Source of the DNA: a virus
Taxonomy: Duplodnaviria; Caudoviricetes
IMG/VR virus record: IMGVR_UViG_3300009431_000002
Coordinates: 1-64,000 of that record
Direction: 5' to 3' (one strand)
DNA length: 64,000 nt
The position numbers were made by a program, and so were the translations under genes. Shown piece by piece: positions 11,350 through 24,759 of the stretch (within the stretch, counting starts at the first letter, position 1; the number at the start of each line of letters is the position of its first letter). The notes under the pieces are model-generated. The model was not told where the DNA came from and ran no database searches. It saw nothing but the letters and a program-made list of their open reading frames with translations.

Positions 11350-12208
11350 GCACGTCGAGCCGGACGGTGGCTGGGGCAAGCCCACGGGTACGCCACCGCC
11401 CGACTGGGCCGCGTGGCGGGAGGAGCAGGGGCACTACGTGGTCCAGCTCCGCAACGGCAGCGAGGAGGTCTACGGCCTCGTCACGGTGGTGCTGCTGAGC
11501 ATCCGGAGCGCCTTCGCCCCCGCCACCGAAGAGGAGATGCGGGCGATGGAGCCCACCCAGCTCGGCGACGAGCTGCGGAAGGCCACCTCCCTCTACGACC
11601 TCGTGATGATGGCCCAGGACCCGGAGTACCGCGAGCAGGTCTCCCCGGACAACATCGCGTTCCTCAAGCGCTTCAATCTCGTCGAGGCCGACGGGCGCAT
11701 GCACGGGTCCACCCGCAACATCGTCCGCTCGGCGTTCGAGATCGGCGCCAAGGGCCAGATGCCGGTCCAGAACAATCCGCTGCTTCGCAGGGGCGACGTG
11801 CCCGACCGTCGGGAGGACAAGTCGTTCGAGGACCCGCTGATGCGGATGATGCGGACGACGCCGAGCCCCGTCGCCGACCCCATCCCGGAGGTGCCGGGGG
11901 ACCAGCGGCCCGTCGCGGGCGAGGTGTTCGTCGGCAAGGCCTCCCGCGGCCGCGTGGTGGTGCTGCCGCCGTCGATGAACCCGAGCATCTTCCCGCACCA
12001 CGACACGGTGGTCTACACCAACGAGAAGTGGCCCACGGAGGAGCACCTCCAGTCCCACCAGCCGCACACCATGCGGACCGCGGTGTTCCTGGACACGTTC
12101 GACCGCGTCGAGGACGACGTCATCGGCACCGAGCAGCTGCGGGAGATCGCCAGCCGCTTCGGCGACCCCAACCAGTGGATCCACGCCGACAAGGAGACCG
12201 AGGAGTAG
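11327..12208 (+). CDS. Hypothetical protein
   Basis: Start reassigned to MTDSNGTEH; strong GC3 bias. Confidence 0.7.
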   Translation: MTDSNGTEHVEPDGGWGKPTGTPPPDWAAWREEQGHYVVQLRNGSEEVYGLVTVVLLSIRSAFAPATEEEMRAMEPTQLGDELRKATSLYDLVMMAQDPEYREQVSPDNIAFLKRFNLVEADGRMHGSTRNIVRSAFEIGAKGQMPVQNNPLLRRGDVPDRREDKSFEDPLMRMMRTTPSPVADPIPEVPGDQRPVAGEVFVGKASRGRVVVLPPSMNPSIFPHHDTVVYTNEKWPTEEHLQSHQPHTMRTAVFLDTFDRVEDDVIGTEQLREIASRFGDPNQWIHADKETEE

Positions 12209-12235
12209 CCTGAGTCCCTCCAGCCGGAGGGGCCA

Positions 12236-12258
12236 GGGGCGCGCCCGACGCGCGCCCC
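12236..12258. terminator. GC hairpin between convergent units
   Basis: GGGGCGCGC-ccgac-GCGCGCCCC followed by a T-rich stretch on the plus strand. Confidence 0.5.
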
Positions 12259-12272
12259 GCTTATCTTAGAGT

Positions 12273-12349
12273 TGGTGCGGGTGCTCGGGATCGAACCGAG
12301 GACCTCCTGGTCCCGAACCAGGCGCGCTACCAGACTGCGCTACACCCAC
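12273..12349 (-). tRNA. tRNA-Pro(CGG)
   Basis: Cloverleaf; CCTGG-TT CGG GA-CCAGG; CCA encoded; G1:C72. Confidence 0.93.
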
Positions 12350-12352
12350 ACC

Positions 12353-12429
12353 TGGGGCCGACGCTCGGAATCGAACCGAGAACCTGCTGATTACGAGTCA
12401 GCTGCTCTGCCTGGTTGAGCTACGTCGGC
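12353..12429 (-). tRNA. tRNA-Thr(CGT)
   Basis: GCTGA-CT CGT AA-TCAGC; CCA encoded. Confidence 0.95.
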
Positions 12430-12430
12430 G

Positions 12431-12507
12431 TGGTGCCCCGACCCTGAATTGAACAGGGGACCCCGGACTTATCAGGTCCGTGCTCTACCGGACTGAGCTA
12501 CCGGGAC
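12431..12507 (-). tRNA. tRNA-Ile(GAT)
   Basis: CGGAC-CT GAT AA-GTCCG; CCA encoded. Confidence 0.95.
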
Positions 12508-12556
12508 ACGGGAACTATTCAGTTGTGCATAGGTGCGCCCACCCGGACCGGGCGGG

Positions 12557-12592
12557 CTAGATAATGGTCGTAGGTGGTGTCAGCCAACGCAT
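12557..12592 (-). CDS. Leaderless leader peptide MRWLTPPTTII (Ile/Thr/Pro operon)
   Basis: ATG CGT TGG CTG ACA CCA CCT ACG ACC ATT ATC TAG, 6 nt after TG-C-TACAGT; hairpin GCCCGCCCG-GTC-CGGGTGGGC at the stop. Confidence 0.8.
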   Translation of the reverse strand: MRWLTPPTTII

Positions 12593-12598
12593 GAGGGC

Positions 12599-12607
12599 AC
12601 TGTAGCA
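12599..12607 (-). promoter_or_regulatory. Extended -10 promoter TG-C-TACAGT
   Basis: Identical motif at 14181-14189; no good -35. Confidence 0.6.
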
Positions 12608-12622
12608 CAGGAGGTAGGGTTG

Positions 12623-12676
12623 TGGTAGCCCGACCCGGACTCGAACCGGGGACCTTCGGTATCTAGCCGAAGATCC
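12623..12676 (-). pseudogene. 3' half of a tRNA (anticodon arm remnant, T-arm, acceptor strand, CCA)
   Basis: TTCGG-CTAGATA-CCGAA GGTC CCCGG-TTCGAGT-CCGGG TCGGGCT A CCA; overlaps the stop codon of the 12663 ORF; no matching 5' acceptor strand. Confidence 0.7.
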
Positions 12677-13424
12677 CTTCCACGCGGCCGGCTCGACCCG
12701 ACTGAGTCAGGGTCTTCCCCATGATGTGCCGGGCTTGTCGTTGGGCCATCTCGCCCGCCTGCTCTGGTGACATCTCCGGTAGTTCCTTGGCGCCTCGGAG
12801 GAATCTCCTCTTCATGGCGGCCGGGACCCTCTGGCCGCTTTCCAGGAATTGATGAGCGCGGGGGTCCTTGAACACCTGCGCGAACTGCTGACGGAGAAGC
12901 TCGGTTTCCCCGGTAGCCTCTCTCATTTCCCGCAGTCGCCGGGCAGCGTGCCTCAAGCTCTTGGCTTGCCCCTTCGGAGCGGCCAGACGGTTCAGGAGGT
13001 TCAACTCCTCTACCAGCACTCCGGGGCTGAGGTGAAGACTCTTGCCTAGAGGTACGGCCTTCCTCTCCAACCCCTCATGCAGCGTGAGGAGTGTCTTTGG
13101 GCCACGGCCTTCCACCCCAGGGAGCAGGCCCTTTGCCGCAGACGGGCCGTAGAAGATTCTCCCGGCGTGACGCCCGTACCTGGACTGGAGAGCCTGCACC
13201 AGCTCTTCTGGGATCATTCCCCGCTGCCACTCGAAGAACTCTGGATGCTTGAGGGACTTGCGGATGTGGGCCTTCGTCGGGATCAGCGTCGCTCCCAGCT
13301 GACCCGCCAGCCCCCTAGACCTGGTAGGTGCCAGTCTCCTGGCTGCCGCGTACAGCTCCTGAGCGGACGCAGCCTCCTTGATCTTGCAGAGCTCGTCAAC
13401 GAAAGCCGGGAAGGAGGGACTCAC
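12663..13424 (-). CDS. Hypothetical protein with N-terminal FVDELCKIKEAA motif
   Basis: ORF track; codon usage less GC3-biased than flanks; contains LHEGLE segment. Confidence 0.7.
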   Translation of the reverse strand: MSPSFPAFVDELCKIKEAASAQELYAAARRLAPTRSRGLAGQLGATLIPTKAHIRKSLKHPEFFEWQRGMIPEELVQALQSRYGRHAGRIFYGPSAAKGLLPGVEGRGPKTLLTLHEGLERKAVPLGKSLHLSPGVLVEELNLLNRLAAPKGQAKSLRHAARRLREMREATGETELLRQQFAQVFKDPRAHQFLESGQRVPAAMKRRFLRGAKELPEMSPEQAGEMAQRQARHIMGKTLTQSGRAGRVEGIFG

Positions 13425-13433
13425 GCTCAGAGA

Positions 13434-13829
13434 CTACCCCACCTCGTAGTCGGCCGTAAAGCGGATACCCTTCTTCTGCCCGTTCTTGGGCGGGGTGATC
13501 CGCAACGCGGCTACGCGGATGGCTACATCTTCTACGGGCACCAGGTAGACCTTGTCCAGATCGGGGCAGTAGACACCGAAGAGCTCGACTTGCCCCCTGT
13601 ACCCCTTCCGCTTCCTGGTGCGGTAATCCACGCTGCAGGGGTCGAACTGCACCGCGCCGTTCCGCAGGCGCCCGGTCTTGCACTGGATGCGCTTGAACTC
13701 CCCGTCGTCGTCCATGACGAGGTCGTACCGTTGGTTGTCCCCGAAGGGCTGGAGCATGACCTTCCCTGCCTTGAGGAGGGTGCCGAGGATCACGCCTTCC
13801 GACTTCTCACCGACTTCCTTGGTGTTCAT
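13434..13829 (-). CDS. PD-(D/E)XK family endonuclease (homing-type)
   Basis: GEKSEGVI...PFGDNQRYDLVMD...IQCKTG; leaderless promoter upstream. Confidence 0.85.
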   Translation of the reverse strand: MNTKEVGEKSEGVILGTLLKAGKVMLQPFGDNQRYDLVMDDDGEFKRIQCKTGRLRNGAVQFDPCSVDYRTRKRKGYRGQVELFGVYCPDLDKVYLVPVEDVAIRVAALRITPPKNGQKKGIRFTADYEVG

Positions 13830-13835
13830 GGGGCC

Positions 13836-13864
13836 AGCGTACCTGAGAGCGTCGGGTAGGTCAA
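13836..13864 (-). promoter_or_regulatory. Promoter TTGACC-17-TACGCT, 6 nt before ATG (leaderless)
   Basis: Read directly. Confidence 0.7.
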
Positions 13865-13874
13865 CCGGAGGTGT

Positions 13875-13950
13875 TGGTAGGTCTGGCTGGGCTCGAACCA
13901 GCGACTTCTGCCGTGTGAAAGCAGCACTCTCCCAACTGAGTTACAGACCC
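13875..13950 (-). tRNA. tRNA-Val(CAC)
   Basis: CTGCT-TT CAC AC-GGCAG; CCA encoded. Confidence 0.93.
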
Positions 13951-13988
13951 ACTGACACCGCTGCTCTCCCTAGCTGAGCTACCGGCCC
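13951..13988 (-). pseudogene. 5' half of a tRNA (acceptor strand + D-arm), truncated
   Basis: GGGCCGG TA GCTC AGCTAGGGA GAGC A GCGG... abutting tRNA-Val; no T-arm. Confidence 0.65.
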
Positions 13989-13989
13989 G

Positions 13990-14066
13990 TGGTGGAGGCG
14001 ACAGGAATCGAACCTGCGACCTGCTGCGTGCAAGGCAGCTGCTCTCCCAGCGTGAGCTACGCCCCC
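13990..14066 (-). tRNA. tRNA-Ala(TGC)
   Basis: GCTGC-CT TGC AC-GCAGC; G3:U70; CCA encoded. Confidence 0.95.
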
Positions 14067-14111
14067 ACGGCGAAGATGTAGATGTAGAGGGTCGCTCCCC
14101 GAACCGGGGAG

Positions 14112-14174
14112 CTAGATCGCGGCCACGACAACTGGCAGCGCGAGGAAGACGGAGAGTCGTGCGAGACGTTCCAT
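14112..14174 (-). CDS. Leaderless leader peptide MERLARLSVFLALPVVVAAI (Ala/Val operon)
   Basis: 6 nt after TG-C-TACAGT; hairpin GCTCCCCG-GTT-CGGGGAGC at the stop. Confidence 0.8.
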   Translation of the reverse strand: MERLARLSVFLALPVVVAAI

Positions 14175-14180
14175 GCCGCG

Positions 14181-14189
14181 ACTGTAGCA
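14181..14189 (-). promoter_or_regulatory. Extended -10 promoter TG-C-TACAGT
   Basis: Identical to 12599-12607. Confidence 0.6.
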
Positions 14190-14193
14190 CAAG

Positions 14194-14269
14194 TGGCGCG
14201 AGCTGTGGGAATCGAACCCACCCAGTTGGTTTTGGAGACCAACTCGCCTGCCTTGGGACATGAGCCCGC
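14194..14269 (-). tRNA. tRNA-Trp(CCA)
   Basis: TTGGT-CT CCA AA-ACCAA; atypical D-arm; CCA encoded. Confidence 0.88.
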
Positions 14270-14271
14270 AC

Positions 14272-14347
14272 TGGAACCCCCGACTGGACTCGAACCAGCG
14301 CACGGCGGATTAGAACTCCGCTGCTCTTCCAACTGAGCTACGGGGGC
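14272..14347 (-). tRNA. tRNA-Arg(TCT)
   Basis: GCGGA-GT TCT AA-TCCGC; CCA encoded. Confidence 0.9.
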
Positions 14348-14404
14348 CGACTTGACTGAACTCCCCTACTTGACCGGCTGCTCAAGCGGCCGGGTTTGGT
14401 CAAG

Positions 14405-14480
14405 TGGTACAGACGTCAGGGGTCGAACCTGAAACCACTGGGGCCACATCCCAGCGCTCTGCCAGTTGAGCTACGTCTGC
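14405..14480 (-). tRNA. tRNA-His(GTG)
   Basis: CTGGG-AT GTG GC-CCCAG; A73 and no encoded G-1. Confidence 0.88.
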
Positions 14481-14483
14481 ACG

Positions 14484-14561
14484 TGGTACCCGCGGGAGGA
14501 CTCGAACCTCCGACCTTCCGGTTCGTAGCCGGACGCTCTAGGTCCACTGAGCTACGCGGGC
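14484..14561 (-). tRNA. tRNA-Arg(ACG)
   Basis: TCCGG-CT ACG AA-CCGGA; CCA encoded. Confidence 0.95.
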
Positions 14562-14564
14562 ACG

Positions 14565-14639
14565 TGACCCCGGCAGGACTCGAACCTGCGACCTCCGCGT
14601 CCGGAGCGCGGCGCTCTGGGTCCACTGAGCTACGGGGCC
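14565..14639 (-). tRNA. tRNA-Arg(CCG), CCA not encoded
   Basis: CCGCG-CT CCG GA-CGCGG. Confidence 0.92.
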
Positions 14640-14651
14640 GGTTGTCAAAGA

Positions 14652-14727
14652 TGGCGGTGCCGCCAGGACTCGAACCTGGAACCAGAGCGTTAACAGCGCC
14701 CCGCTCTAGCCATTGAGCTACGACACC
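14652..14727 (-). tRNA. tRNA-Asn(GTT)
   Basis: GGGCG-CT GTT AA-CGCTC; G1:C72; CCA encoded. Confidence 0.93.
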
Positions 14728-14728
14728 G

Positions 14729-14803
14729 TGGTTGCTGCGCCTGGGGTCGAACCAGGGACCTGCCGGTTATGAGCCGGCTGCTCTACCGCTGAGCCACGCA
14801 GCA
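14729..14803 (-). tRNA. tRNA(CAT), elongator Met more likely than Ile2; not initiator
   Basis: GCCGG-CT CAT AA-CCGGC; lacks the GGG/CCC initiator stem. Confidence 0.85.
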
Positions 14804-14806
14804 TCG

Positions 14807-14879
14807 AGGGTCGACCGGGACTCGAACCCGGATCTCCGGATTAAAGGTCCAGGGCGTTATCCATTACGCTCATCGACCC
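14807..14879 (-). tRNA. tRNA-Lys(TTT), CCA not encoded, C33
   Basis: CTGGA-CC TTT AA-TCCGG; acceptor GGGTCGA/TCGACCC. Confidence 0.8.
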
Positions 14880-14880
14880 A

Positions 14881-14956
14881 TGGAGGGTGGAGGGGGACTC
14901 GAACCCCCAACCGCCGGATTAAGAGTCCAGCGCTCTACCTGTTGAGCCATCCACCC
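14881..14956 (-). tRNA. tRNA-Lys(CTT)
   Basis: CTGGA-CT CTT AA-TCCGG; CCA encoded. Confidence 0.95.
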
Positions 14957-14962
14957 GCAGTT

Positions 14963-15008
14963 CTCCGTCTCCACCTGCCGCCCCTTCGGGCAACAAGTAG
15001 ACACGGAG
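14963..15008 (-). promoter_or_regulatory. Long leader hairpin (putative attenuator element)
   Basis: CTCCGT/ACGGAG, TCTACTTG/CAGGTGGA, TTGCCC-GAAG-GGGCGG; G-U pairs work only on the minus strand. Confidence 0.65.
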
Positions 15009-15022
15009 GGGCGGACGCAGAT

Positions 15023-15073
15023 TTACCTGTGCTTGTTCCAGCGGTGCATGAAGGTGGGTCTGACGAAGGTCAT
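15023..15073 (-). CDS. Leaderless leader peptide MTFVRPTFMHRWNKHR (Lys/Met/Asn/Arg/His/Trp operon)
   Basis: ATG ACC TTC GTC AGA CCC ACC TTC ATG CAC CGC TGG AAC AAG CAC AGG TAA, 6 nt after TACGCT. Confidence 0.85.
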   Translation of the reverse strand: MTFVRPTFMHRWNKHR

Positions 15074-15079
15074 GTGGCG

Positions 15080-15108
15080 AGCGTAGACCAGCTCGAGATG
15101 GAGGTCAA
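15080..15108 (-). promoter_or_regulatory. Promoter TTGACC-17-TACGCT
   Basis: Read directly; same hexamers as 13836-13864. Confidence 0.75.
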
Positions 15109-15111
15109 CGG

Positions 15112-15195
15112 ATCCCGACATGAATCCCGACTTCGTGTCGGGATAGCCCCACGCACGTCATCCGGATCCCGACAGGGGTTGACGACACAGTGTCG
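15112..15195. repeat. Operator-like repeats between divergent tRNA promoters
   Basis: ATCCCGAC at 15112, 15124, 15166 and inverted at 15137-15144; palindrome CGACAC-A-GTGTCG at 15183-15195. Confidence 0.6.
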
Positions 15196-15207
15196 CCGTG
15201 CTGTACT
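15179..15207 (+). promoter_or_regulatory. Promoter TTGACG-17-TGTACT, 7 nt before ATG
   Basis: Paralogous to TTGACA-17-TGTAGT at 18744-18772; -10 is non-canonical. Confidence 0.6.
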
Positions 15208-15214
15208 CCGGCCC

Positions 15215-15271
15215 ATGCACTCCTTCGACATCCAATTCGGATTGTCGCTACAGCTCCTGGGTACCCAGTAG
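15215..15271 (+). CDS. Leaderless leader peptide MHSFDIQFGLSLQLLGTQ (Leu/Gly/Gln operon)
   Basis: Read directly; paralog at 18678-18737; followed by alternative GC hairpins. Confidence 0.85.
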   Translation: MHSFDIQFGLSLQLLGTQ

Positions 15272-15327
15272 TCGCCGCCCCCGTACGCCCGTAACCCCGG
15301 GTAGCCGGGGGCGGGAGAAGTGCGTTT

Positions 15328-15413
15328 GGGAGAGTGGCGGAATGGTAGACGCGCGGGTTTCAGGAGCTCGTGTCCTTCGCGGCGTGGGGGTTCGACTCCC
15401 CCCTCTCCCACCA
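15328..15413 (+). tRNA. tRNA-Leu(CAG)
   Basis: CGGGT-TT CAG GA-GCTCG; long variable arm; A73, CCA. Confidence 0.93.
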
Positions 15414-15415
15414 GT

Positions 15416-15500
15416 GCCGGAGTGGCGGAACGGTAGACGCGCGGGTCTGAGGGGCTCGTGTCCGAGTGGCGTCCGGGTTCGACTCCCGGTTCCGGCACCA
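15416..15500 (+). tRNA. tRNA-Leu(GAG)
   Basis: CGGGT-CT GAG GG-GCTCG; long variable arm; CCA. Confidence 0.93.
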
Positions 15501-15514
15501 CAACAAGAACTCGT

Positions 15515-15592
15515 GCGGGAGTAGCTCCAACTGGCTAGAGCAGCGGCCTTCCAAGCCGACGGTTCAGGGTTCGAGCCCCTGTTCCCGCACCA
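15515..15592 (+). tRNA. tRNA-Gly(TCC)
   Basis: CGGC-CT TCC AA-GCCG; A73; CCA. Confidence 0.9.
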
Positions 15593-15593
15593 T

Positions 15594-15671
15594 GTGCCGG
15601 GGCGCAAGGCGTCATAGGGAGAAGGGGACGGCCTCGCTCCTGTTTCGCGTGGGGAAACCCACCCCCGGCAC
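15594..15671 (+). ncRNA. Unclassified tRNA-sized structured RNA
   Basis: 9-bp GTGCCGGGG/CCCCGGCAC closing stem, GTGGG-GAAA-CCCAC arm, two inner hairpins; no TTC loop, no CCA. Confidence 0.5.
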
Positions 15672-15673
15672 CT

Positions 15674-15749
15674 GTGGGCATGGCGCAGTCGGTGGCGCGT
15701 CGGGTTGCCAATCCGAAGGTCGCGGGTTCGAGCCCCGCTGCCCACACCA
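15674..15749 (+). tRNA. tRNA-Gly(GCC) with atypical acceptor
   Basis: TCGGG-TT GCC AA-TCCGA; U2:A71, A73; CCA. Confidence 0.87.
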
Positions 15750-15757
15750 ACAGCTTT

Positions 15758-15846
15758 GCGAGCGTGGCGGAATTGGTATACGCGCCGGATTCAAAATCCG
15801 GTGGTCCTTCGCGGCCGTGCAGGTTCGATGCCTGCCGCTCGCACCA
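15758..15846 (+). tRNA. tRNA-Leu(CAA)
   Basis: CCGGA-TT CAA AA-TCCGG; long variable arm; CCA. Confidence 0.95.
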
Positions 15847-15848
15847 GA

Positions 15849-15924
15849 TGGGGAGTAGTTCAGTTGGTAGAACGGTTGGCTCTGGACCAGCATGTCGGGG
15901 GTTCGAGTCCCTCCTCCCCATCCA
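15849..15924 (+). tRNA. tRNA-Gln(CTG)
   Basis: GTTGG-CT CTG GA-CCAGC; U1:A72; CCA. Confidence 0.93.
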
Positions 15925-15981
15925 TCGTGAAACCCGGCTCGAAATCGGGATAAGGGCCCCGAACCCGAAGCAGGAGGTAGC

Positions 15982-18060
15982 ATGCCCGAATTCAAGCCGT
16001 TCGCCGAGCTTGTCCGATCCGCGTTCCAGGAGATGGCCGCCGGTGGGCTCTTCGTCGTCAACATCAGTGGGGACGACCTGTACGAGTCCTACCTGGGTGC
16101 GTTCCCGGACGGCACCAATCCCGTCTTCCGTGAGCGCACCGAGCACGACTGCAGCAGCTGCAAGCACTTCATCCGCCGCGTGGGCATGGTCATCGACCAG
16201 GACCGCAACACGGTCTGGGACAAGGCCGCCCGAACGGCCGAGTACCCCTACAACGAGGTGGCCTCCGACCTGGCCGCCATGGTCAAGGCCGCTCCGATCC
16301 GCGACGTCTTCCGCGTCCAGGAGAGCGGCATCGGCACCGCCATGAACCGCGGCGTGAGCCCGTCGGGCCAGGTCGAGCGCTGGCACCACTTCCACACCGG
16401 CAGCATCCCGAAGCGCTTCCGCGCGGCGAGCCCGGGGGAGGCCCAGGGCGCGTACCGCACCACCGTCCAGGTCTTCCGGCGCGGGCTGGAGGAGCTGACC
16501 ACCGACGCCCTGGAGACCGTGCTGGCGCTGATCGACGCCAACAACCTCTATCGGGGCGAGGAGCACCGCGAGAAGGTGGCGGGCTTCCTCAAGACGCAGC
16601 AGGAGTTCCTCGACCTCGGCGCCGTTGACCGGGAGCGCTTCGTCTGGGCACGCGCCGACGACCCGGCCACCCGCTTCCGCAACACCGCCATCGGCACCCT
16701 GGTCCAGGACCTGAGCGAGGGCATGGACGTCACGAAGGCGGTCAAGCGGTTCGAGGCGAAGGTCGCGCCGGAGAACTACAAGCGCACCTCGGCCGTCATC
16801 ACCCCCGGCATGGTCAAGGAGGCCATGAAGACCATCACGACGATGGATCTGGAGCCCGCCCTGGAGCGGCGGTTCGCCCGCGTCGAGGACGTCAACGTCA
16901 ACGACGTGCTGTGGGTGGACAACCAGGTCAAGCCGCTGATGGCCGGCGGCCTCGGCGACATGCTCATGGACCACGCCCAGGCAGCGCAGGGCTACGAGCT
17001 CGACGAGAAGCGCGCCGAGGACATCGCCGTCGACGAGTTCCTGGCCAGCGTGCTCCCCGAGGCCGCGGCCGTGGAGCTGCTGCTGAAGACCGCGCACCTG
17101 GGCAACCTGATGTCGCTCACGGCGCCGGTCCACCCGGCGCCCCACCAGCTGTTCCAGTGGGACAACGACTTCGCCTGGTCCTACGCCGGCAACATGGCCG
17201 ACTCCGAGCTGCGCAAGCGCGTGTCCGCCGCCGGCGGACGCGTGGACGGGGCGTTCCGCTTCTCTCACTCGTGGAACCACGACAAGCGCAACGCCTCGCT
17301 GATGGACCTCCACGTCTTCATGCCCGGGAACGGGACCTCGTACTCCCGGCCCGGGACCACCCACGACGTCTACGGCAACAACGAGCGCGTGGGGTGGAAC
17401 CACCGACAGCATCCCAGGTCCGGCGGCGTCCAGGACGTGGACTACGTGAAGGAGGCGCCTCCCGGGTACATCCCCGTCGAGAACATCACGTTCCCCGACA
17501 TCACGCGGATGCGTCCCGGCACGTATATCTGCAAGATCCACAACTGGCAGCTCCGACAGCCCACGCAGGGCGGCTTCCAGGCCGAGATCGAGTTCGGCGG
17601 GCAGGCGTTCACCTACGAGCACCTGGCACCCCTCAAGCACAAGGAGTGGGTGACGGTCGCCACGGTGACGCTGAAGCATGGCGAGTTCTCCATCGAGCAC
17701 CACCTGCCGTGCGGCACGGCCGCCCAGGAGAAGTGGGGCCTGACGTCCGAGCGGTTCGTCAAGGTCAACTTCGTGACCCTGAGCCCCAACCACTGGGGCG
17801 ACAACGCCGTGGGCAACCGCCACACGCTCTTCGTGCTCGACGGCGCGAAGAACGACGAGCCCTGCCGAGGCATCTACAACGAGTTCCTGCACCCCCGCCT
17901 GATCAAGCACCGCAAGGTGTTCGAGGTCATCGGCGACAAGACGAAGTGCCAGCCCACCGAGGGCCAGCTGTCCGGCGTCGGCTTCTCGTCCACGAAGCGC
18001 GACGCCGTGCTCATCAAGATCGACAACCAGCGCCTGTACCGCGTCCGGTTCGGCGCGTAG
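15982..18060 (+). CDS. Large conserved-looking phage protein (692 aa), function unknown
   Basis: AGGAGG RBS; YLxxFPxGTN...EHDCSSCKHFI N-terminal Cys motif; RFSHSWN...MDLHV C-terminal beta domain. Confidence 0.85.
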   Translation: MPEFKPFAELVRSAFQEMAAGGLFVVNISGDDLYESYLGAFPDGTNPVFRERTEHDCSSCKHFIRRVGMVIDQDRNTVWDKAARTAEYPYNEVASDLAAMVKAAPIRDVFRVQESGIGTAMNRGVSPSGQVERWHHFHTGSIPKRFRAASPGEAQGAYRTTVQVFRRGLEELTTDALETVLALIDANNLYRGEEHREKVAGFLKTQQEFLDLGAVDRERFVWARADDPATRFRNTAIGTLVQDLSEGMDVTKAVKRFEAKVAPENYKRTSAVITPGMVKEAMKTITTMDLEPALERRFARVEDVNVNDVLWVDNQVKPLMAGGLGDMLMDHAQAAQGYELDEKRAEDIAVDEFLASVLPEAAAVELLLKTAHLGNLMSLTAPVHPAPHQLFQWDNDFAWSYAGNMADSELRKRVSAAGGRVDGAFRFSHSWNHDKRNASLMDLHVFMPGNGTSYSRPGTTHDVYGNNERVGWNHRQHPRSGGVQDVDYVKEAPPGYIPVENITFPDITRMRPGTYICKIHNWQLRQPTQGGFQAEIEFGGQAFTYEHLAPLKHKEWVTVATVTLKHGEFSIEHHLPCGTAAQEKWGLTSERFVKVNFVTLSPNHWGDNAVGNRHTLFVLDGAKNDEPCRGIYNEFLHPRLIKHRKVFEVIGDKTKCQPTEGQLSGVGFSSTKRDAVLIKIDNQRLYRVRFGA

Positions 18061-18071
18061 AGAGGAGAACT

Positions 18072-18485
18072 ATGGACACCGCCAAGATGTACGAGGTCGC
18101 GCTCCGCAACAAGCTCCGGTTCGAGAGCCCCAAGGGCCCGCTGAGCCTGGAGCACCTGTGGGACGTGCCGCTGCGCTCCCGCACCAACTTCAACCTGGAC
18201 ACCATCGCCCGGACCGCCAGCCGCGATCTCAAGGAGACGTCCGAGGAGAGCTTCGTCGCCACGCGCAAGAGCCCGAAGCAGACGCTGGCCGAGGTCAAGC
18301 TCGAGCTCGTCAAGCACGTCATCGCGGTCAAGCTCGCCGAGGAGGAGAAGGCCGAGAAGCGCGCCGACGCCGTCAAGCGCAAGGAGAAGCTGACGGAGAT
18401 CCTGGAGCGCAAGCAGGACGCCAAGTTCGAGGAGATGGACGAGGCCGCCATCCGCAAGGAGCTCGCCGAGCTCGACGCCTCCTGA
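18072..18485 (+). CDS. Phage protein with coiled-coil C-terminus, partner of the 692-aa gene
   Basis: RBS GAGGAG; KLRFESPKGPLSLEHLWDVPL. Confidence 0.85.
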   Translation: MDTAKMYEVALRNKLRFESPKGPLSLEHLWDVPLRSRTNFNLDTIARTASRDLKETSEESFVATRKSPKQTLAEVKLELVKHVIAVKLAEEEKAEKRADAVKRKEKLTEILERKQDAKFEEMDEAAIRKELAELDAS

Positions 18486-18496
18486 CCCCACGCCCT

Positions 18497-18525
18497 GGGA
18501 GGGCCGGCACGCCGCCGGTCCTCCC
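18497..18525. terminator. Hairpin between convergent units
   Basis: GGGAGGGCCGGC-acgcc-GCCGGTCCTCCC. Confidence 0.55.
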
Positions 18526-18537
18526 GTTAGCTCGGAA

Positions 18538-18622
18538 TGGCGGAGAGGGTGGGAATCGAACCCACACGCCCGAAGACACGAGGTCCTGAACCCCGCGCGT
18601 CTACCAATTCCGCCACTCTCCC
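18538..18622 (-). tRNA. tRNA-Leu(CAG) copy with a Ser-like 3' end (chimera, G73)
   Basis: 5' part near-identical to 15328 copy; 3' end CCCTCTCC G CCA; acceptor pairs only as 6 bp GGAGAG/CTCTCC. Confidence 0.75.
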
Positions 18623-18677
18623 ACACGCACTTCTCCCGCCCCCGGCTACCCGGGGTTCGGGCGTACGGGGGCGGCGA

Positions 18678-18737
18678 CTACTGGATACCCAGAAGCTGGA
18701 GCGACAATCCGAGGACTTGGATGTCGGAGACGTGCAT
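18678..18737 (-). CDS. Leaderless leader peptide MHVSDIQVLGLSLQLLGIQ (duplicate Leu leader)
   Basis: 6 nt after TTGACA-17-TGTAGT; paralog of 15215-15271. Confidence 0.8.
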   Translation of the reverse strand: MHVSDIQVLGLSLQLLGIQ

Positions 18738-18743
18738 GGGGGC

Positions 18744-18772
18744 ACTACAGCACGGCCCGCCAAGCGTGTCAA
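18744..18772 (-). promoter_or_regulatory. Promoter TTGACA-17-TGTAGT
   Basis: Read directly. Confidence 0.65.
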
Positions 18773-18815
18773 GTTCTCGGTATAAGACGGATGAACCTAA
18801 CCACGAGAGGTAACC

Positions 18816-19472
18816 ATGACCACCTGGACCGTTATCGTTGGCAACATCGGCACCGTCTACGAGGGGTGCAACAGCCACGAGGCGCAGCAGTCGTACAAGA
18901 CCTACGTCAGCCTCTCCCAGCAGGGGTACGGCCGGGGGGGTGACGAGGTCGTAACCCTCATCAAGGGCGAGGAGATCGTGCAGGAGCATCTCCCCGACCT
19001 CGACGAGCCCCACAAGGTGAGCGAGGGCACGGACGCCCATGCCTACTACCGCGCTCTGCAGCGGGCCGAGGGGGAACTCCACCAGCTCCAGAAGGACCAC
19101 CGGACCACCCTGGCCCACACCCTGGCCCACAACCAGGCGCAGTCCAAGAAGCTCACCGAGCTGGGCAATACCGTCTCAGCACTGAAGAGCCTACTGCGCA
19201 AGATGGCCGAGCAGCGGCTGCTCGACAAGATTCACCACTTCAGCAGGGACGCCTCCATCGTCCCCAGCGGTCTCCCCGAGGCCAACACCAGCAGCGAGGA
19301 GGAGAGGGCTGCGCTGCGCGCACTCCAGTCCCAAGGCTTGGTGGAGCGAGTGGGGGAACAGCGCTGGGCGGCGTATCGCCTGACCTACGAGGGGCGTACC
19401 CGACGCGACTACCTGCACAACCACTACAACCTCGACGCATCGCTGATGCGCTACCTGACGGAGAACACATGA
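18816..19472 (+). CDS. Hypothetical protein (coiled coil, possible C-terminal winged helix)
   Basis: RBS GAGG; coupled to next gene. Confidence 0.7.
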   Translation: MTTWTVIVGNIGTVYEGCNSHEAQQSYKTYVSLSQQGYGRGGDEVVTLIKGEEIVQEHLPDLDEPHKVSEGTDAHAYYRALQRAEGELHQLQKDHRTTLAHTLAHNQAQSKKLTELGNTVSALKSLLRKMAEQRLLDKIHHFSRDASIVPSGLPEANTSSEEERAALRALQSQGLVERVGEQRWAAYRLTYEGRTRRDYLHNHYNLDASLMRYLTENT

Positions 19473-20713
19473 AGACTGCAACGCTACTCGGCCTCGAAGC
19501 CCAACAGATCAACATCCTCGTGAGCAGGGAGCCCAGCGCGGGCCACAGGTTCTGGATCATCGGACTACCCGCTCACGCTACCGGGGAGACCGCCGCGAGA
19601 GTTCGCGCTGCCATCGTGGCCAGCGGATACGAGTTCCCGTCTGGGGTCTCCGTGCGGCTGTTCCCCGACGACGTGCCCAAGTACGGCACCCACTACGACC
19701 TGCCCATCGCCCTGGCCATCATCGACGCCCTCTACCTCGCCAAGGTGCACTTCACCTCCCACTACCTGCCCGTGGGCGAGCTGGGACTGAACGGTGAGGT
19801 GCGGCCCGTCCGCGGCGTGCTGGCCATGCGCTCGGCGGAGGATCTCAACACCAGTGGAGTCCTCTGCCCCTACGACAACATCGCCCAGGCGGCCATGTAC
19901 CCCGGCGGGGTCGGCAGCGTCTTCGGCGTCCGCACCCTGCAGGAAGCCGTCGCCTACGCCAGCGGGGAGATCGCCGACCCCACTCCGCCTCCTGTGCCGG
20001 TCCCGCCCTCCCAGGACGTCGTCGACATGTACGACGTAAGGGGCCATAAACGGGCCAAAAGGGCTATGGAGGCGGCTGCCGTCAATGGCGCCAACATCCT
20101 CCTGCAGGGACCGGCTGGCTGCGGCAAGACCATGCTGGCCCGCCGGTTCCCTACCATCCTACCTACCATGCACGCGGTGGAGGAGCACGGCGTGGCGCGC
20201 ATCTTCAGCGCCTCCGGTCTGACGGCTCCTGGCGCCGCGGCCTACGTGACCACGAGGCCCTTCCGCGCGCCGCACCACACGTGCTCAGCGCAGGCCCTCG
20301 TGGGCGGTGGGGTGCCTGTCCGCCCCGGCGAGGTCACGCTGGCCCACAACGGAGTGCTCTTCCTGGACGAGCTGCCCGAGTTCCCGCGGGCCGCCATCGA
20401 CGCCCTGCGGCAGCCGCTGAGGGAGAAGAGGGTCACCTTCGCCCGTGCGGGCATGGTCTACGAGTTCCCCGCCAGCTTCCAGCTGGTGGCCGCGGCCAAC
20501 CACTGCCCCTGTGGGAGATTGATGCAGCAGTGCACCTGCAGCAGTGCCGAGCTGCGCCGGTACACGGCGCGCGTCGATGAGCTGGTGGACAAGCTGGAGC
20601 TGGAGGTCATCCAGGTGAAGGGGGCCAACCCCTACCAGCTGTACGACGAGCCCAAGGGCGAAACATCGGAGACCATCCGGGAGCGGGTGGAGGAGGCACG
20701 AAGAAATGACTGA
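19469..20713 (+). CDS. comM: YifB/ComM family Mg-chelatase-like AAA+ ATPase, C-terminally shortened
   Basis: Lon-like N-domain (IGLP...YDLPIALAI), Walker A GPAGCGKT, PFRAPHHT, Walker B LFLDELPEF, CPCG...CTC. Confidence 0.9.
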   Translation: MKTATLLGLEAQQINILVSREPSAGHRFWIIGLPAHATGETAARVRAAIVASGYEFPSGVSVRLFPDDVPKYGTHYDLPIALAIIDALYLAKVHFTSHYLPVGELGLNGEVRPVRGVLAMRSAEDLNTSGVLCPYDNIAQAAMYPGGVGSVFGVRTLQEAVAYASGEIADPTPPPVPVPPSQDVVDMYDVRGHKRAKRAMEAAAVNGANILLQGPAGCGKTMLARRFPTILPTMHAVEEHGVARIFSASGLTAPGAAAYVTTRPFRAPHHTCSAQALVGGGVPVRPGEVTLAHNGVLFLDELPEFPRAAIDALRQPLREKRVTFARAGMVYEFPASFQLVAAANHCPCGRLMQQCTCSSAELRRYTARVDELVDKLELEVIQVKGANPYQLYDEPKGETSETIRERVEEARRND

Positions 20714-21404
20714 CAACTACCAGCAGTGGAGCGAGATCATCGAGGATCTGACGGGCGAGGAGATCGCCTGGATCAACGAAGACCTCCTCCGGTTCAGTCC
20801 GGGGGAAGACGGAGGCATCATCGAGCGTGGCGGGGACACCCTGCTGCTCATCGACAAGAACGGCAACTGGACTCCGCTGGGAGAGCAGTGGCGCGAGAAG
20901 CACCCGGCGTTCACCGAGGACGACTACGCCTGGCCCAGCTTCGACTGGTCCATCAGCACCTACAAGGGAGAGCCCCACATCTGGTTCCGGGGCGACTCCG
21001 GCTGCAACCTGGAGCACCTCGCTGACTTCGTGCACAGGTTCATCAAGAAGTTCCGCCCAGACATGATCTTCAAGCTCACCTGGGCCGAGTGGTGCTCTGG
21101 CCCCCGTGTCGGCGAGTTCGGCGGCGGCTGGTTCGTCGCGCACAAGGGTGGCGTGGAGTGGGGGAACACCTACGAGGACACCAAGATCTGCGCCGACCGG
21201 ATCAAGCACCCCTGGCTGACCGACAGGGTCCAGTTCGCCCGTCTCCTCTGCGAGATGAGCGCCCTGGGACTGCCGGACGGTGAGGACAACTGGGATCTCT
21301 TCAACGACCTGAAGGAGAACATGGACCTCACCGACAATGACATCGACGAGCTGTTCGAGCGCGCCCACAAAGTGTGGGAGGACGCGAAGGAGAGGATGAC
21401 GTAA
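20706..21404 (+). CDS. Hypothetical protein
   Basis: Coupled ORF with typical codon bias. Confidence 0.7.
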   Translation: MTDNYQQWSEIIEDLTGEEIAWINEDLLRFSPGEDGGIIERGGDTLLLIDKNGNWTPLGEQWREKHPAFTEDDYAWPSFDWSISTYKGEPHIWFRGDSGCNLEHLADFVHRFIKKFRPDMIFKLTWAEWCSGPRVGEFGGGWFVAHKGGVEWGNTYEDTKICADRIKHPWLTDRVQFARLLCEMSALGLPDGEDNWDLFNDLKENMDLTDNDIDELFERAHKVWEDAKERMT

Positions 21405-21718
21405 TGGAGGTGCACCCACCTGTGCGGGTGTTCTGCTTCGAGTGTGGAGACGAGATCGAGGTGGTGGACACACAACGAGAAGAAGACGGCTCGCTGTCTG
21501 TCAGCATCTCCGGTGCCTGTGAGCGCGAGTGCCAGCAGGCGGCAGAGAAGTCCTCCTGGGCGGCGCACCAGCGCGAACAGCAGATACAAGAGAGGGCCGA
21601 CCGCCTACTCCGTGAGGAGCGGCAGAACGCCGAAACCGAGCGGTTCCTGCGCGATGAGCGCGACCGCAAAAACAAACAGGATCGCGCCTTCTGGCGCGCG
21701 ATGGGATGGAACCGATGA
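21404..21718 (+). CDS. Hypothetical protein (CxxC Zn ribbon, coiled coil)
   Basis: TAATG coupling; CFEC and CEREC. Confidence 0.6.
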   Translation: MEVHPPVRVFCFECGDEIEVVDTQREEDGSLSVSISGACERECQQAAEKSSWAAHQREQQIQERADRLLREERQNAETERFLRDERDRKNKQDRAFWRAMGWNR

Positions 21719-21951
21719 TCCTGCCTGGCTACAAGACCAACTACGAGACCCTGCTCCGCGCCGCCAAGGCTGGCGACCTGGCGCTGGTGGAGTGCACCAG
21801 CATCGAGACCGGAGAGCCCGTCTTCGTGATCTGTAGCGTCCACGTGAGCGATGGCGAGTACGTCATGACTCCACTGGCCAAGATGTTCGACGGCAACCCC
21901 TACGAGGAGGTGGCTCCTCCCAGCTCGGAGAGGCCAGAGAATGAGAGCTAG
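21715..21951 (+). CDS. Hypothetical protein
   Basis: ATGA coupling. Confidence 0.65.
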   Translation: MILPGYKTNYETLLRAAKAGDLALVECTSIETGEPVFVICSVHVSDGEYVMTPLAKMFDGNPYEEVAPPSSERPENES

Positions 21952-22141
21952 GGTCACCGCCACCCTCGACAAGCGCGTGCTGGCGCTACTCAAGGAGGAG
22001 GCAGCCCGTATGAACACGTCGGTCTCACACTTGATCGAGCGGAGCATCTGGAGGGCAATCAACTCCCCCGAAGGGCTAGGTGTGGACGATGTCGACGAAG
22101 CCATCAACAGGTACAAGGAAAGGAAAGATCATGCCGACTGA
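21941..22141 (+). CDS. Ribbon-helix-helix (CopG-like) DNA-binding protein
   Basis: RVTATLDKRVLALLKEEAARMNTSVSHLIE pattern. Confidence 0.65.
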   Translation: MRARVTATLDKRVLALLKEEAARMNTSVSHLIERSIWRAINSPEGLGVDDVDEAINRYKERKDHAD

Positions 22142-22143
22142 GG

Positions 22144-22587
22144 ATGGGCAGCATGCTACTTCGTGAGGCGCGGGTCACCTACACCAGCAGGCGCATCGAC
22201 CTGAAGCGCAAGTCCCTCAAGGGTTCCCAGGAGGCGTACGACGTGGTGAAGCACATCTTCACCCCGGGAGACCCCCAGGAGCGCTTCTACGTCGTCCTGC
22301 TGAACGCCAAGCACATGTACGAGGGCCACGCGCTGGTGTCTGTGGGGACTCTGGACGCAGCCATCGTTCACCCCCGAGACGTGTTCCGCCCCGCCGTTGC
22401 ACAGAGCAGCGCACTTGTAATCCTGGCCCACTACCACCCCTCGGGCGACCCAACACCTTCCGCAGAAGACGTGGCCGTCACCAAGCGGCTGGTCGCTGCG
22501 GGGGAGGTTCTGGGCATCGACGTACTGGACCACTTGATCATCTCGGATGAGAGCTGGTGCTCCATGCGGGACAGAGGAGAGATATGA
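22144..22587 (+). CDS. radC: RadC-like JAB domain protein
   Basis: VHPRDVF...AHYHPSGDPTPSAED...LDHLII. Confidence 0.9.
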   Translation: MGSMLLREARVTYTSRRIDLKRKSLKGSQEAYDVVKHIFTPGDPQERFYVVLLNAKHMYEGHALVSVGTLDAAIVHPRDVFRPAVAQSSALVILAHYHPSGDPTPSAEDVAVTKRLVAAGEVLGIDVLDHLIISDESWCSMRDRGEI

Positions 22588-24715: not shown

Positions 24716-24759
24716 CAGGAGGCCCGCGTTCTGCAGTGCCTTCTTTCTTAGATCAAAGT

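Follow-up and report, generated by a model that had tools for sequence, protein, structure and literature searches.

Every tRNA transcription unit of an uncultured 202-kb phage is headed by a short ORF rich in the amino acids of the tRNAs encoded behind it, six such leaders in total (L1 to L6). Since matched mini-genes stand at the head of every unit, the phage most likely controls its tRNAs through the speed of the ribosome on each of them. Coordinates below refer to the window, the whole stretch of 64,000 nucleotides that was analyzed (positions 1 to 64,000 of IMG/VR record IMGVR_UViG_3300009431_000002).

The L4 leader is an ORF of 18 codons on the + strand, rich in Leu, Gly and Gln, that reads from ATG 15215-15217 to TAG 15269-15271 (MHSFDIQFGLSLQLLGTQ) and ends 56 nt upstream of a tRNA-Leu(CAG) gene. 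Its codons are ATG CAC TCC TTC GAC ATC CAA TTC GGA TTG TCG CTA CAG CTC CTG GGT ACC CAG TAG, including four for Leu (TTG CTA CTC CTG), two for Gly (GGA GGT) and three for Gln (CAA CAG CAG). The six-tRNA unit behind it (15328..15924, + strand) encodes Leu-CAG (starting at 15328), Leu-GAG (15416), Gly-TCC (15515), Gly-GCC (15674), Leu-CAA (15758) and Gln-CTG (15849), with an 81-nt structured spacer between the two Gly tRNAs. All six are backed by Rfam, and an Rfam search of 12000-27000 at E <= 0.1 returned these and other tRNA matches, weak chance matches below the gathering score, and no T-box. A sequence-only reading had taken this ORF for a leader with an amino-acid make-up tied to the downstream tRNAs, counting Leu, Gly or Gln at nine of the last 12 residues. 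That count is correct (QFGLSLQLLGTQ), the observation of the ORF and its tRNAs is confirmed, and five more leaders of the same genome show the same tie. By itself L4 only hints at a leader-tRNA match, with Leu, Gly and Gln at 9 of 17 residues (binomial P = 3.7e-4 for L4 taken alone) and an L+G+Q content that ranks 8th among the 1404 ATG-started short ORFs of the whole genome.

The other five leaders lie on the - strand. L1 (12538..12604) starts as TGCTACAGT-6-ATG, encodes MRWLTPPTTII at 12592-12557, and has a hairpin at 12556-12538 before tRNAs Ile-GAT, Thr-CGT and Pro-CGG. L2 (14096..14186) also starts as TGCTACAGT-6-ATG, and its ORF at 14174-14112 (MERLARLSVFLALPVVVAAI) ends in ...LPVVVAAI, followed by a hairpin at 14110-14096 and the Ala-TGC and Val-CAC tRNAs. 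L3 (14963..15108, TTGACC-17-TACGCT-6-ATG, ORF 15073-15023, MTFVRPTFMHRWNKHR, hairpin 15008-14963) includes the residues ...MHRWNKHR and precedes Lys-CTT, Lys-TTT, Met, Asn, Arg-CCG, Arg-ACG, His, Arg-TCT and Trp. L5 is a paralog of L4 (18633..18772, TTGACA-17-TGTAGT-6-ATG, ORF 18737-18678, MHVSDIQVLGLSLQLLGIQ, hairpin as in L4) that stands before a lone tRNA-Leu(CAG) at 18621-18538 and retains Gly and Gln codons even though its sole downstream tRNA is Leu. L6 (26585..26747, TTGACC-17-TACGGT-6-ATG, ORF 26712-26650, MHTAAPLLSSSSYCFDSDSA, hairpin at about 26647-26585) carries ...SSSSYCFDSDSA before the Cys, Phe, Asp and Tyr tRNAs, with Ser-CGA, Ser-GGA and Ser-GCT farther downstream.

Residues matching the leader's own tRNA set number 7/10, 8/19, 9/15, 9/17, 5/18 and 11/19 in the six ORFs (binomial P 4e-4 to 4.5e-3), whereas matches of a leader to another unit's tRNA set are at or below expectation. 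Ranked for its own set, each leader falls between 3rd and 10th among the 1404 short ORFs of the genome. The true pairing of leaders and tRNA sets gives 44 matches, compared to 33 for the best of the other 119 permutations, and an unsupervised screen of all tRNA-upstream ORFs placed exactly these leaders at the top of its list. For ORFs like these to fall by chance within all the proper 120-nt windows, the joint probability is about 3e-14, and the Fisher-combined P is 3e-10.

The match did not extend to individual codons. The sequence-only reading had seen a near one-to-one correspondence between L4 codons and downstream anticodons, and the codon/anticodon pairs it listed are indeed present, but a peptide of this sequence would have a cognate codon for each of the six tRNAs with P = 0.12, so this correspondence is factual without exceeding chance; the L4 codons CTA and CAA have no phage tRNA. 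Isoacceptor-specific matching failed across the leaders, with 33 of 44 cognate codons readable by phage tRNAs versus 33.0 expected from random synonymous choice, and with ACA, CCA, CCT, GTC, GTT, GCC, CTA, CAA and TCA beyond the reach of phage tRNAs. Being at chance, the codon-level match to phage anticodons was dropped as evidence. The number of distinct synonymous codons at cognate positions over all leaders is 39 versus 33.5 expected (P = 0.004).

The L4 promoter (15179..15207, + strand), as read from the sequence, consists of a -35 box TTGACG at 15179-15184, a 17-nt spacer, and a -10 box TGTACT at 15202-15207 preceded by TGC. The ATG follows 7 nt past the -10 box, so that the mRNA is predicted to be leaderless or nearly so. 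All six leaders have 6-7 nt between -10 box and ATG and no Shine-Dalgarno sequence; ordinary genes of the phage do have one, for example GGAGG ahead of the ATG at 15982. The pattern TTGACN-16/18-(TAnnnT or TGTAnT)-5/8-ATG occurs at just seven sites in 202 kb, namely four leaders and three real genes, one of which has a start identical to the JGI gene call. A consensus scan for promoters and terminators found no element, since it accepts only -10 boxes with A at position 2 and only terminators with a U tract, which makes it blind to the elements described here. A 13-bp palindrome, CGACACAGTGTCG (15183..15195, no strand assigned), overlaps the -35 box and spacer and is one of 15 copies scattered through the genome; it may bind a protein. 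Judging by the style of its promoters and its leaderless starts, the phage may have a host among the Actinomycetota or Deinococcota; a search of the phage for host clues found no WhiB gene.

Directly behind the L4 stop codon lies a GC-rich hairpin, H-long (15272..15316, + strand, -31 kcal/mol, no U tract), whose paired strands in the minimum free energy (MFE) fold are CCGCCCCC(G) (15275-15283) and (C)GGGGGCGG (15306-15314). When the 13 nt after the stop are masked, the CCCCGG-GTAG-CCGGGG hairpin forms in its place (H-short, 15288-15315, -21.7 kcal/mol). The sequence-only reading had these two structures compete, and both exist, but a classical terminator/antiterminator pair is rejected: they use one 3' arm and end at about the same base, so a ribosome at the L4 stop would merely swap one strong hairpin for another. 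Two further hairpins lie mostly within the ORF (15226..15272, + strand): h0 spans 15226-15247, and h1, which takes in the stop codon, spans 15253-15272. A proposed pairing of the leader 5' end with bases just before the tRNA was borne out for L4, where AUGCACU at 15215-15221 pairs with AGUGCGU at 15319..15325 (+ strand) as the 3' strand of a closing helix in the MFE fold; this helix is found in L5 and partially in L6, but is absent from L1-L3. The fold of the whole L4 leader beats 200 of 200 shuffles (z = -4.3).

L4 and L5 also allow a comparison within the genome. Their peptides retain every cognate residue and differ at four of eight non-cognate ones, and nine of the ten differences between the leaders are outside columns paired in both folds (P = 1.9e-4). 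Within h0 and h1 the differences fall in loops and bulges. Judged from these two sequences, RNA structure is constrained between the paralogs over the whole leader.

The GC hairpin begins 0-3 nt past the stop in five of the six leaders and at +15 in L3, the hairpins sit 6-29 nt ahead of the first tRNA, and no U tract was found after any of the six. Ranked by strength, those of L3, L4 and L5 are within the top 39 single hairpins of the genome. Among the others in this group, about nine lie within 70 nt of the end of a long ORF and likewise have no U tract, so a U-less hairpin may be the local form of terminator. Folding combined with footprint masking found no mutually exclusive terminator and antiterminator in the leaders, L1 and L2 each having a single hairpin with no alternative. 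In the masked folds, ribosomes stalled at most regulatory codons spare the hairpin; in L1, L2, L4 and L5 it melts only when the ribosome is at the stop or at the final 1-3 codons, and in L3 it never does. All six ORFs have more C than G (skew 0.13-0.41), modest per ORF and extreme only in L6 (top 0.3% of windows); the hairpins have C-rich 5' arms, but these are base-paired.

The same design was found in cultured Mycobacterium phages of the Bxz1-like and Myrna-like types, which can be propagated on M. smegmatis mc2 155, making it directly testable with existing genetics. In Mycobacterium phage Phabba, Ser/Leu tRNAs are preceded by MFALLSLSSSLRLS (P = 4e-6), a leader kept in 195 further records. 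Before Gln/Asn tRNAs, the Bxz1-like Yucca encodes MRTSSQQNRQQ and Phabba MRTNRLNRQQ, with a hairpin that takes in the stop codon. The Phabba and Yucca leaders are all preceded by TG(C/T)TACAGT-7-ATG. No matched leader was found for the main 25-26-tRNA arrays of Yucca and Phabba or in Arthrobacter phage Atuin, and Microbacterium phage A3Wally yielded a weak candidate only. Phabba and A3Wally encode peptidyl-tRNA hydrolases beside their tRNA arrays. A further locus, L008 (...HQPQPTK before Glu/Pro/Gln/His/Lys), was rejected, as its apparent spacer contains tRNA-like sequence.

Searches for relatives of the phage itself returned no orthologous leaders suited to covariation analysis among the relatives searched. 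An exact search of IMG/VR with a 21-mer of the hairpin had no match, and the DUF8224 neighbours found there reach no more than 54% identity and lack matched tRNA clusters. The closest DUF8224 relative (82%) is on a 3.3-kb contig with a tmRNA-like gene in place of the tRNAs. Terminase relatives (72% and 48-49% identical) are without tRNAs, none were found for the terminase in prokaryote genomes, and two ORFan proteins next to the leaders' locus had no homologs.

What the sequence shows directly is the six ORFs and how they match their tRNA sets, the geometry of the promoters, the presence of hairpins, and the constraint on RNA structure between L4 and L5. That the leaders are translated and regulate in cis, with what sign and by what mode of termination, is inferred. 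Transcription from the host-type promoter would start at the AUG or 1 nt earlier, and a 70S ribosome would read the frame of 11-20 codons, whose C-terminal half would present the amino acids of the downstream tRNAs in many synonymous codons. Ribosome speed over these cognate codons would set whether RNA polymerase passes the GC-rich hairpin behind the stop and enters the tRNA genes. When charged tRNA is short, slow decoding of Leu, Gly and Gln would keep the ribosome on the leader, increase read-through, and supply more tRNA-Leu, tRNA-Gly and tRNA-Gln. The likeliest route would be that the stalled ribosome shields the C-rich leader from the termination factor Rho or a nuclease while the hairpin pauses polymerase; a classical terminator/antiterminator swap is less likely than such shielding. 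That the leaders are a cis-acting translated sensor of some kind is quite probable. Given such a sensor, a homeostatic sign is somewhat favoured, and given that sign, the Rho or occupancy route has about an even chance. The complete proposal of six homeostatic, leaderless leader-peptide sensors, one per unit, that gate tRNA transcription is our preferred reading, held tentatively at slightly below even.

The same sensor with the opposite sign is unlikely, yet it draws on the hairpin geometry. Completion of translation would then allow read-through past a U-less terminator or long pause, as a ribosome close behind polymerase reaches the stop, opens the 5' arm and frees polymerase to proceed, and a stall at hungry codons would lead to termination. 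This would amount to family-specific stringent control, with a tRNA family switched off whenever charging with its amino acid fails. Should the hairpin be an intrinsic terminator, the footprint geometry favours this sign: nearly all stalls at regulatory codons leave the hairpin standing, and in L1, L2, L4 and L5 it is lost only with the A site on the last 1-3 codons or on the stop. The hairpin also abuts the stop in five of six leaders, includes the stop in the mycobacteriophage Gln/Asn leader, and resembles the gene-end hairpins of the phage. However, positive feedback on tRNA supply makes little sense for a phage that carries tRNAs against shortage, and family-specific matching typifies negative feedback. 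In addition, the second strong hairpin of L4 and L5 (-21.7 kcal/mol) is outside the reach of a ribosome at the stop, and the hairpin of L3, 15 nt past the stop, would never melt.

It is improbable that a translated sensor instead acts after transcription, on folding, on processing by RNase P or RNase J/E, or on stability of the precursor. The short distance between the hairpins and the first tRNA (6-29 nt), the pairing of the 5' AUG of L4, L5 and L6 with bases directly before the tRNA, and the conservation of L4/L5 structure across the whole leader are all consistent with such an output, but processing of the first tRNA would not govern the five to eight later ones, which are excised independently. 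We know of no precedent for a post-transcriptional output of such a sensor.

More improbable still is that the mini-ORFs do not regulate tRNAs and instead encode functional small peptides, sequester tRNA as the lambda bar minigenes do, or are untranslated RNA structure with incidental codon content. Constrained RNA structure could alone conserve the sequence of L4 and L5, and the peptidyl-tRNA hydrolases beside the tRNA arrays of Phabba and A3Wally provide a link to peptidyl-tRNA drop-off. Structure leaves unexplained, however, why each of five unrelated sequences, read in frame from an ATG at the predicted transcript start, encodes the amino acids of its own tRNA set; the peptides have no sequence in common, bar minigenes have 2-6 codons, and no bacterial-type Pth gene was found in this phage. 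Chance, meaning a GC-rich intergenic region with an ORF rich in common amino acids such as Leu and Gly, could account for the rank of L4 alone (just 8th of 1404) and its codon-level match, but is refuted for the whole system by the six-fold, set-specific recurrence (joint probability about 3e-14), the promoter and hairpin anatomy common to the leaders, and the recurrence of the design in mycobacteriophages.

Classical leader-peptide attenuators include trpL, hisL, leuL and pheL and the multivalent thrL and ilvL of E. coli and Salmonella. The phage leaders resemble them in having a short ORF at the transcript start that is enriched in the relevant codons, with a hairpin behind; L4 lies between the promoter at 15179-15207 and the tRNA at 15328, and the other five are placed likewise. 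They share with thrL and ilvL the putative sensing of several amino acids per leader, and with classical attenuators in general the use of rare or varied synonymous codons. They differ in having tRNA genes rather than biosynthesis or charging enzymes as predicted targets, in a predicted leaderless mRNA without Shine-Dalgarno sequence, in a hairpin without a U tract, and in that no mutually exclusive terminator and antiterminator was found; moreover, their regulatory codons reach the stop, with the hairpin 0-3 nt later in five of six. T-box elements are untranslated, bind uncharged tRNA directly through one specifier codon and act by transcription antitermination. Like T-boxes, the leaders would control genes of the tRNA-charging economy, but they match neither the T-box nor any other Rfam family.

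Rho-dependent control by leader peptides is known from tnaC in E. coli and mgtL/mgtP in Salmonella. In such systems ribosome occupancy of a short ORF near C-rich RNA decides Rho termination, and no U-tract terminator is needed. The phage leaders differ in having tRNA genes as putative targets, and a role for Rho is suggested solely by the C>G skew and the missing U tracts. In M. tuberculosis, conditional termination linked to Rho occurs at translated uORFs (10.1101/2022.06.01.494293). Leaderless leader peptides before aminoacyl-tRNA synthetase and amino-acid genes have been described in Deinococcus deserti (PMC4007540), and they resemble the phage leaders in an AUG at the transcript start, 6-7 nt past a TAnnnT -10 box, in a peptide rich in the cognate residue, and in a target within the tRNA-charging economy. 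The D. deserti leaders have protein genes as targets and one amino acid per leader, whereas those of the phage have tRNA targets and up to six amino acids. Mycobacteria have poly-Cys leaderless short ORFs (Canestrari et al., 10.1101/834739), likewise in an actinobacterial setting, at which a stalled ribosome remodels the downstream RNA and a signal shared across loci defines a 'ribulon'.

A search of the literature returned no account of leader peptides ahead of tRNA genes, and to our knowledge the cases of ribosome-mediated attenuation described to date concern protein genes. If the preferred reading of the leaders as homeostatic sensors is true, it would extend such attenuation to stable-RNA genes. 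The broader proposal, that tRNA operons in phages of high-GC hosts are gated, as a supply-and-demand controller, by leaderless mini-ORFs that sense family-wide decoding speed over many synonymous codons with no canonical terminator/antiterminator, for instance by ribosome occupancy opposing Rho, is more tentative and falls somewhat short of even. The leaderless, U-tract-free form of the leaders raises the question of attenuation in hosts dominated by Rho and leaderless translation. Why phages carry tRNA genes, and at what point they use them, is debated; the reasons put forward are compensation for codon usage, substitution for host tRNAs that have been degraded, and evasion of defences that cleave tRNA. 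If true, these sensors could detect loss of host tRNAs, whether from host shut-off or from tRNA-cleaving defence nucleases, and switch on the replacement tRNAs, and phages would regulate tRNA supply by demand, family by family.

The L4 ORF runs from ATG 15215 to TAG 15271 on the plus strand and encodes MHSFDIQFGLSLQLLGTQ, in which, as the sequence-only reading had claimed, 9 of the last 12 residues are Leu, Gly or Gln. The tRNA genes that begin 56 nt downstream of the ORF are also those it described, Leu(CAG), Leu(GAG), Gly(TCC), Gly(GCC), Leu(CAA) and Gln(CTG). L4 alone is suggestive only. Inspecting the upstream region of every tRNA block showed that the design recurs five more times in the genome, each time on the minus strand: L1 (12592-12557; MRWLTPPTTII) precedes tRNAs for Ile, Thr and Pro, L2 (14174-14112; MERLARLSVFLALPVVVAAI) precedes Ala and Val, L3 (15073-15023; MTFVRPTFMHRWNKHR) precedes Lys, Lys, Met, Asn, Arg, Arg, His, Arg and Trp, L5 (18737-18678; MHVSDIQVLGLSLQLLGIQ) precedes a lone Leu(CAG), and L6 (26712-26650; MHTAAPLLSSSSYCFDSDSA) precedes Cys, Phe, Asp and Tyr followed by three Ser tRNAs.

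With the amino-acid composition of random short ORFs from this genome as background, each leader matched its own tRNA set with P = 4e-4 to 4.5e-3, whereas matches to the other leaders' sets were at or under expectation. The true pairing of leaders with tRNA sets gave 44 matches, compared to at most 33 in the 119 other permutations. In a genome-wide ranking of the 1404 ORFs with an ATG start and 8-40 codons, each leader comes between 3rd and 10th for its own set, and the runs of consecutive cognate residues in L1 (7), L3 (8) and L6 (11) are equalled by at most one other ORF. For five independent sets, the chance that top-ranked ORFs would land in the correct 120-nt windows is ~3e-14; Fisher's combined P is 3e-10. 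When all ORFs upstream of all tRNAs were screened blindly, only these leaders came out on top. The six-leader system is far beyond chance.

The match did not extend to codons. The "near one-to-one codon matching" first proposed for L4 did not survive a control in which peptides were held fixed and synonymous codons drawn at random: 33 of 44 cognate codons are readable by phage tRNAs (33.0 expected), and cognate codons cover 25 of 27 tRNAs across all leaders (22.8 expected, P = 0.12) and 6 of 6 for L4 alone (4.5 expected, P = 0.12). The number of distinct codons at cognate positions was raised (39 vs 33.5 expected, P = 0.004), and ACA, CCA, CCT, GTC, GTT, GCC, CTA, CAA and TCA occur in the leaders and are unreadable by the phage's own tRNAs. 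The leaders seem to sample the whole amino-acid family broadly.

The tRNA genes belong to a complete (CheckV) IMG/VR virus record of 201,921 bp and 67% G+C, whose first 64 kb make up the window. No close cultured relative was found for the phage; most of its proteins lack PHROG matches, and relatives of its terminase share only 72% or <50% identity. All 29 predicted tRNA genes lie within 12.2-26.6 kb and were confirmed by Rfam apart from Ser-AGA, Trp, Ser-GCT and Tyr. Trp and Ser-GCT match only the related tRNA-Sec model, under its cut-off, and Tyr scores 27.3 bits against a cut-off of 29. The 77-nt tRNA-Ser(AGA) called by ARAGORN at 12623-12699 (-) was not matched by the Rfam tRNA model at E <= 0.1, overlaps the end of ORF 12663-13424 and is probably a tRNA-like remnant or a false call; the expected position of the L1 promoter's -35 box coincides with its 3' end. 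In the L4 operon, the 81-nt spacer between Gly-TCC and Gly-GCC (15593-15673, +) contains no ORF; within it, GTGCCGGGG...CCCCGGCAC forms a long-range stem. At 25017-25091 (-), just upstream of tRNA-Ser(GGA), Rfam gave a weak match to a tmRNA-like 3' domain (21 bits, under threshold), and the closest relative contig (L037 1-470) has a tmRNA-like sequence before its DUF8224 gene, where the studied phage has the Leu/Gly/Gln tRNAs.

Upstream of L3-L6, TTGAC(C/A/G) is followed after 17 nt by TACGCT, TACGGT, TGTAGT or TGTACT and after a further 6-7 nt by ATG, while L1 and L2 have an extended -10 box, TGCTACAGT, 6 nt before ATG. Within 202 kb, the -35-bearing pattern is found at 7 sites. Four belong to leaders and three to real genes, and one of these genes has a start identical to that of the JGI gene caller. 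The three ordinary protein genes with the TTGACN-16/17-TAnnnT-6-ATG geometry start at ATG 13829 (-), encoding a PDDEXK_5 protein, 23019 (-) and 57896 (-). Ordinary genes have a Shine-Dalgarno sequence (for example GGAGG before ATG 15982), and none is present at the leaders. This spacing and the missing Shine-Dalgarno sequence suggest that leader transcripts most likely begin at the AUG, a type of start common in Actinomycetota and Deinococcota. Two other features mark the L4 promoter region. A perfect 13-bp palindrome, CGACACWGTGTCG, has 15 genome copies ~8-15 kb apart (e.g. 39099, 52738, 58973); since the copy at 15183-15195 overlaps the -35 box and spacer of the L4 promoter, a protein might bind there and thereby also affect tRNA expression. 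In the region of the divergent L3 and L4 promoters (15105-15175), ATCCCGAC occurs three times, including an inverted pair ATCCCGAC-TTCGT-GTCGGGAT, a candidate operator.

The pairings first noticed around L4 were borne out by folding. In the MFE fold, CCGCCCCCG pairs with CGGGGGCGG, and the part behind the stop has a free energy of -31 kcal/mol. Masking the first 13 nt of that part gave the CCCCGG-GUAG-CCGGGG hairpin (-21.7 kcal/mol). The 5'-end AUGCACU pairs with AGUGCGU, which lies immediately upstream of the tRNA. As a whole, the L4 leader folds far better than shuffled sequences (z = -4.3, 0/200). Its paralog L5 is 88% identical with an in-frame 3-nt indel; 9 of 9 cognate residues are kept, with two synonymous Leu changes, compared to 4 of 8 non-cognate residues changed (Fisher P = 0.03). 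Of the 10 differences, 9, among them both indels, avoid the columns that are paired in both MFE folds (P = 1.9e-4), so constraint acts on RNA structure along the entire leader and also on two hairpins within the ORF. The comparison is therefore weaker as evidence for the peptide, and speaks for a leader that is structured and functional.

In five of six leaders, the stop is followed within 0-3 nt by a GC-rich hairpin (at +15 in L3). No U tract follows any of them, and a consensus scan for terminators found none. The strongest gene-end hairpins of the phage (39740-39780, 115876-115916, 129192-129231, 163187-163226) are also GC stems without a U tract, suggesting that the phage-host pair uses termination that is factor-dependent or U-less, and several carry the same CCGCCCCC/GGGGGCGG motif. 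Because the hairpins of L3, L4 and L5 are within the genome's 39 strongest and resemble these gene-end stems, leader hairpins are plausibly the phage's form of transcript-end signal. Folding revealed no classical terminator/antiterminator switch: in L4 both alternative hairpins use a common 3' arm and have the same last base, and only one hairpin is present in each of L1 and L2.

Because five unrelated sequences match their own tRNA sets in frame from what would be the transcript's first AUG, the leaders are hard to explain other than by translation-based sensing of amino-acid families. Under a homeostatic transcriptional model, which we hold with somewhat less than even confidence, a stalled ribosome would remain on the C-rich leader (C>G in all six ORFs) and shield it from Rho or nuclease while the hairpin pauses polymerase. 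Much of the termination in M. tuberculosis depends on Rho and is linked to translated uORFs (10.1101/2022.06.01.494293). The opposite sign, an intrinsic terminator melted by a ribosome translating fluently close behind polymerase, with stalling causing termination, appears unlikely. When a ribosome footprint was simulated (A site -15 to +12), the hairpin survived stalls at most regulatory codons and was melted only by a ribosome on the last 1-3 codons or stop, as this reading would have it, but the L3 hairpin was melted at no position and the redundant hairpin of L4/L5 is likewise unaccounted for. Positive feedback also seems a poor design for tRNA supply, and family-specific matching is the signature of negative feedback; exclusion of Rho or nuclease by a stalled ribosome is therefore favored. 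A post-transcriptional output of the leader is quite improbable, and non-regulatory readings are more improbable still.

Sequence searches for relatives found no orthologs of L1-L6. The same leaderless design is present, as unannotated mini-ORFs, in the cultured M. smegmatis phages Phabba (Myrnavirus) and Yucca (Bixzunavirus). The Phabba Ser/Leu leader consists of TGCTACAGT-7-ATG, MFALLSLSSSLRLS and a hairpin, then tRNA-Ser and three tRNA-Leu (P = 4e-6), and uses five different Leu and four different Ser codons; in Yucca, MFARLSLSSSLRLS precedes Ser, Ser, Leu, Leu, Leu. These MFA(L/R)LSLSSSLRLS mini-ORFs (L038:19725-19792; L039:7026-7093) are kept in 195 further Mycobacterium phage records at 92% identity. 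Gln/Asn tRNAs are headed by MRTSSQQNRQQ in Yucca and MRTNRLNRQQ in Phabba (L041:475-534; L043:458-516), where the codons CAG CAG TAG form the hairpin 5' arm. No such leaders were found in the large tRNA arrays of Phabba and Yucca or in Arthrobacter phage Atuin. A possible further case in Microbacterium phage A3Wally (L048:14168; TGTGCTATCAT-6-ATG, MRKFYEFDLHLEPLWGV), 141 nt before a Pro/His/Met/Asp/Glu/Tyr/Phe/Leu array, is statistically weak (P = 3e-3 among 68 tests). Peptidyl-tRNA hydrolase genes are annotated in or beside the tRNA arrays of Phabba (L038 20362-20718) and A3Wally (L045 341-370); no bacterial-type Pth gene was found in the studied phage.

In Deinococcus deserti, synthetase and amino-acid genes are preceded by leaderless leader peptides, 14 in all (PMC4007540), and in mycobacteria poly-Cys leaderless short ORFs act as attenuators (10.1101/834739). 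We did not find leader peptides before tRNA genes described in the literature searched or in a paper on phage tRNA genes. Ribosome-mediated attenuation is a known principle; what is new in this leader system is tRNA genes as the target, the matching to multiple amino acids, and the leaderless, U-tract-free, single-hairpin form.
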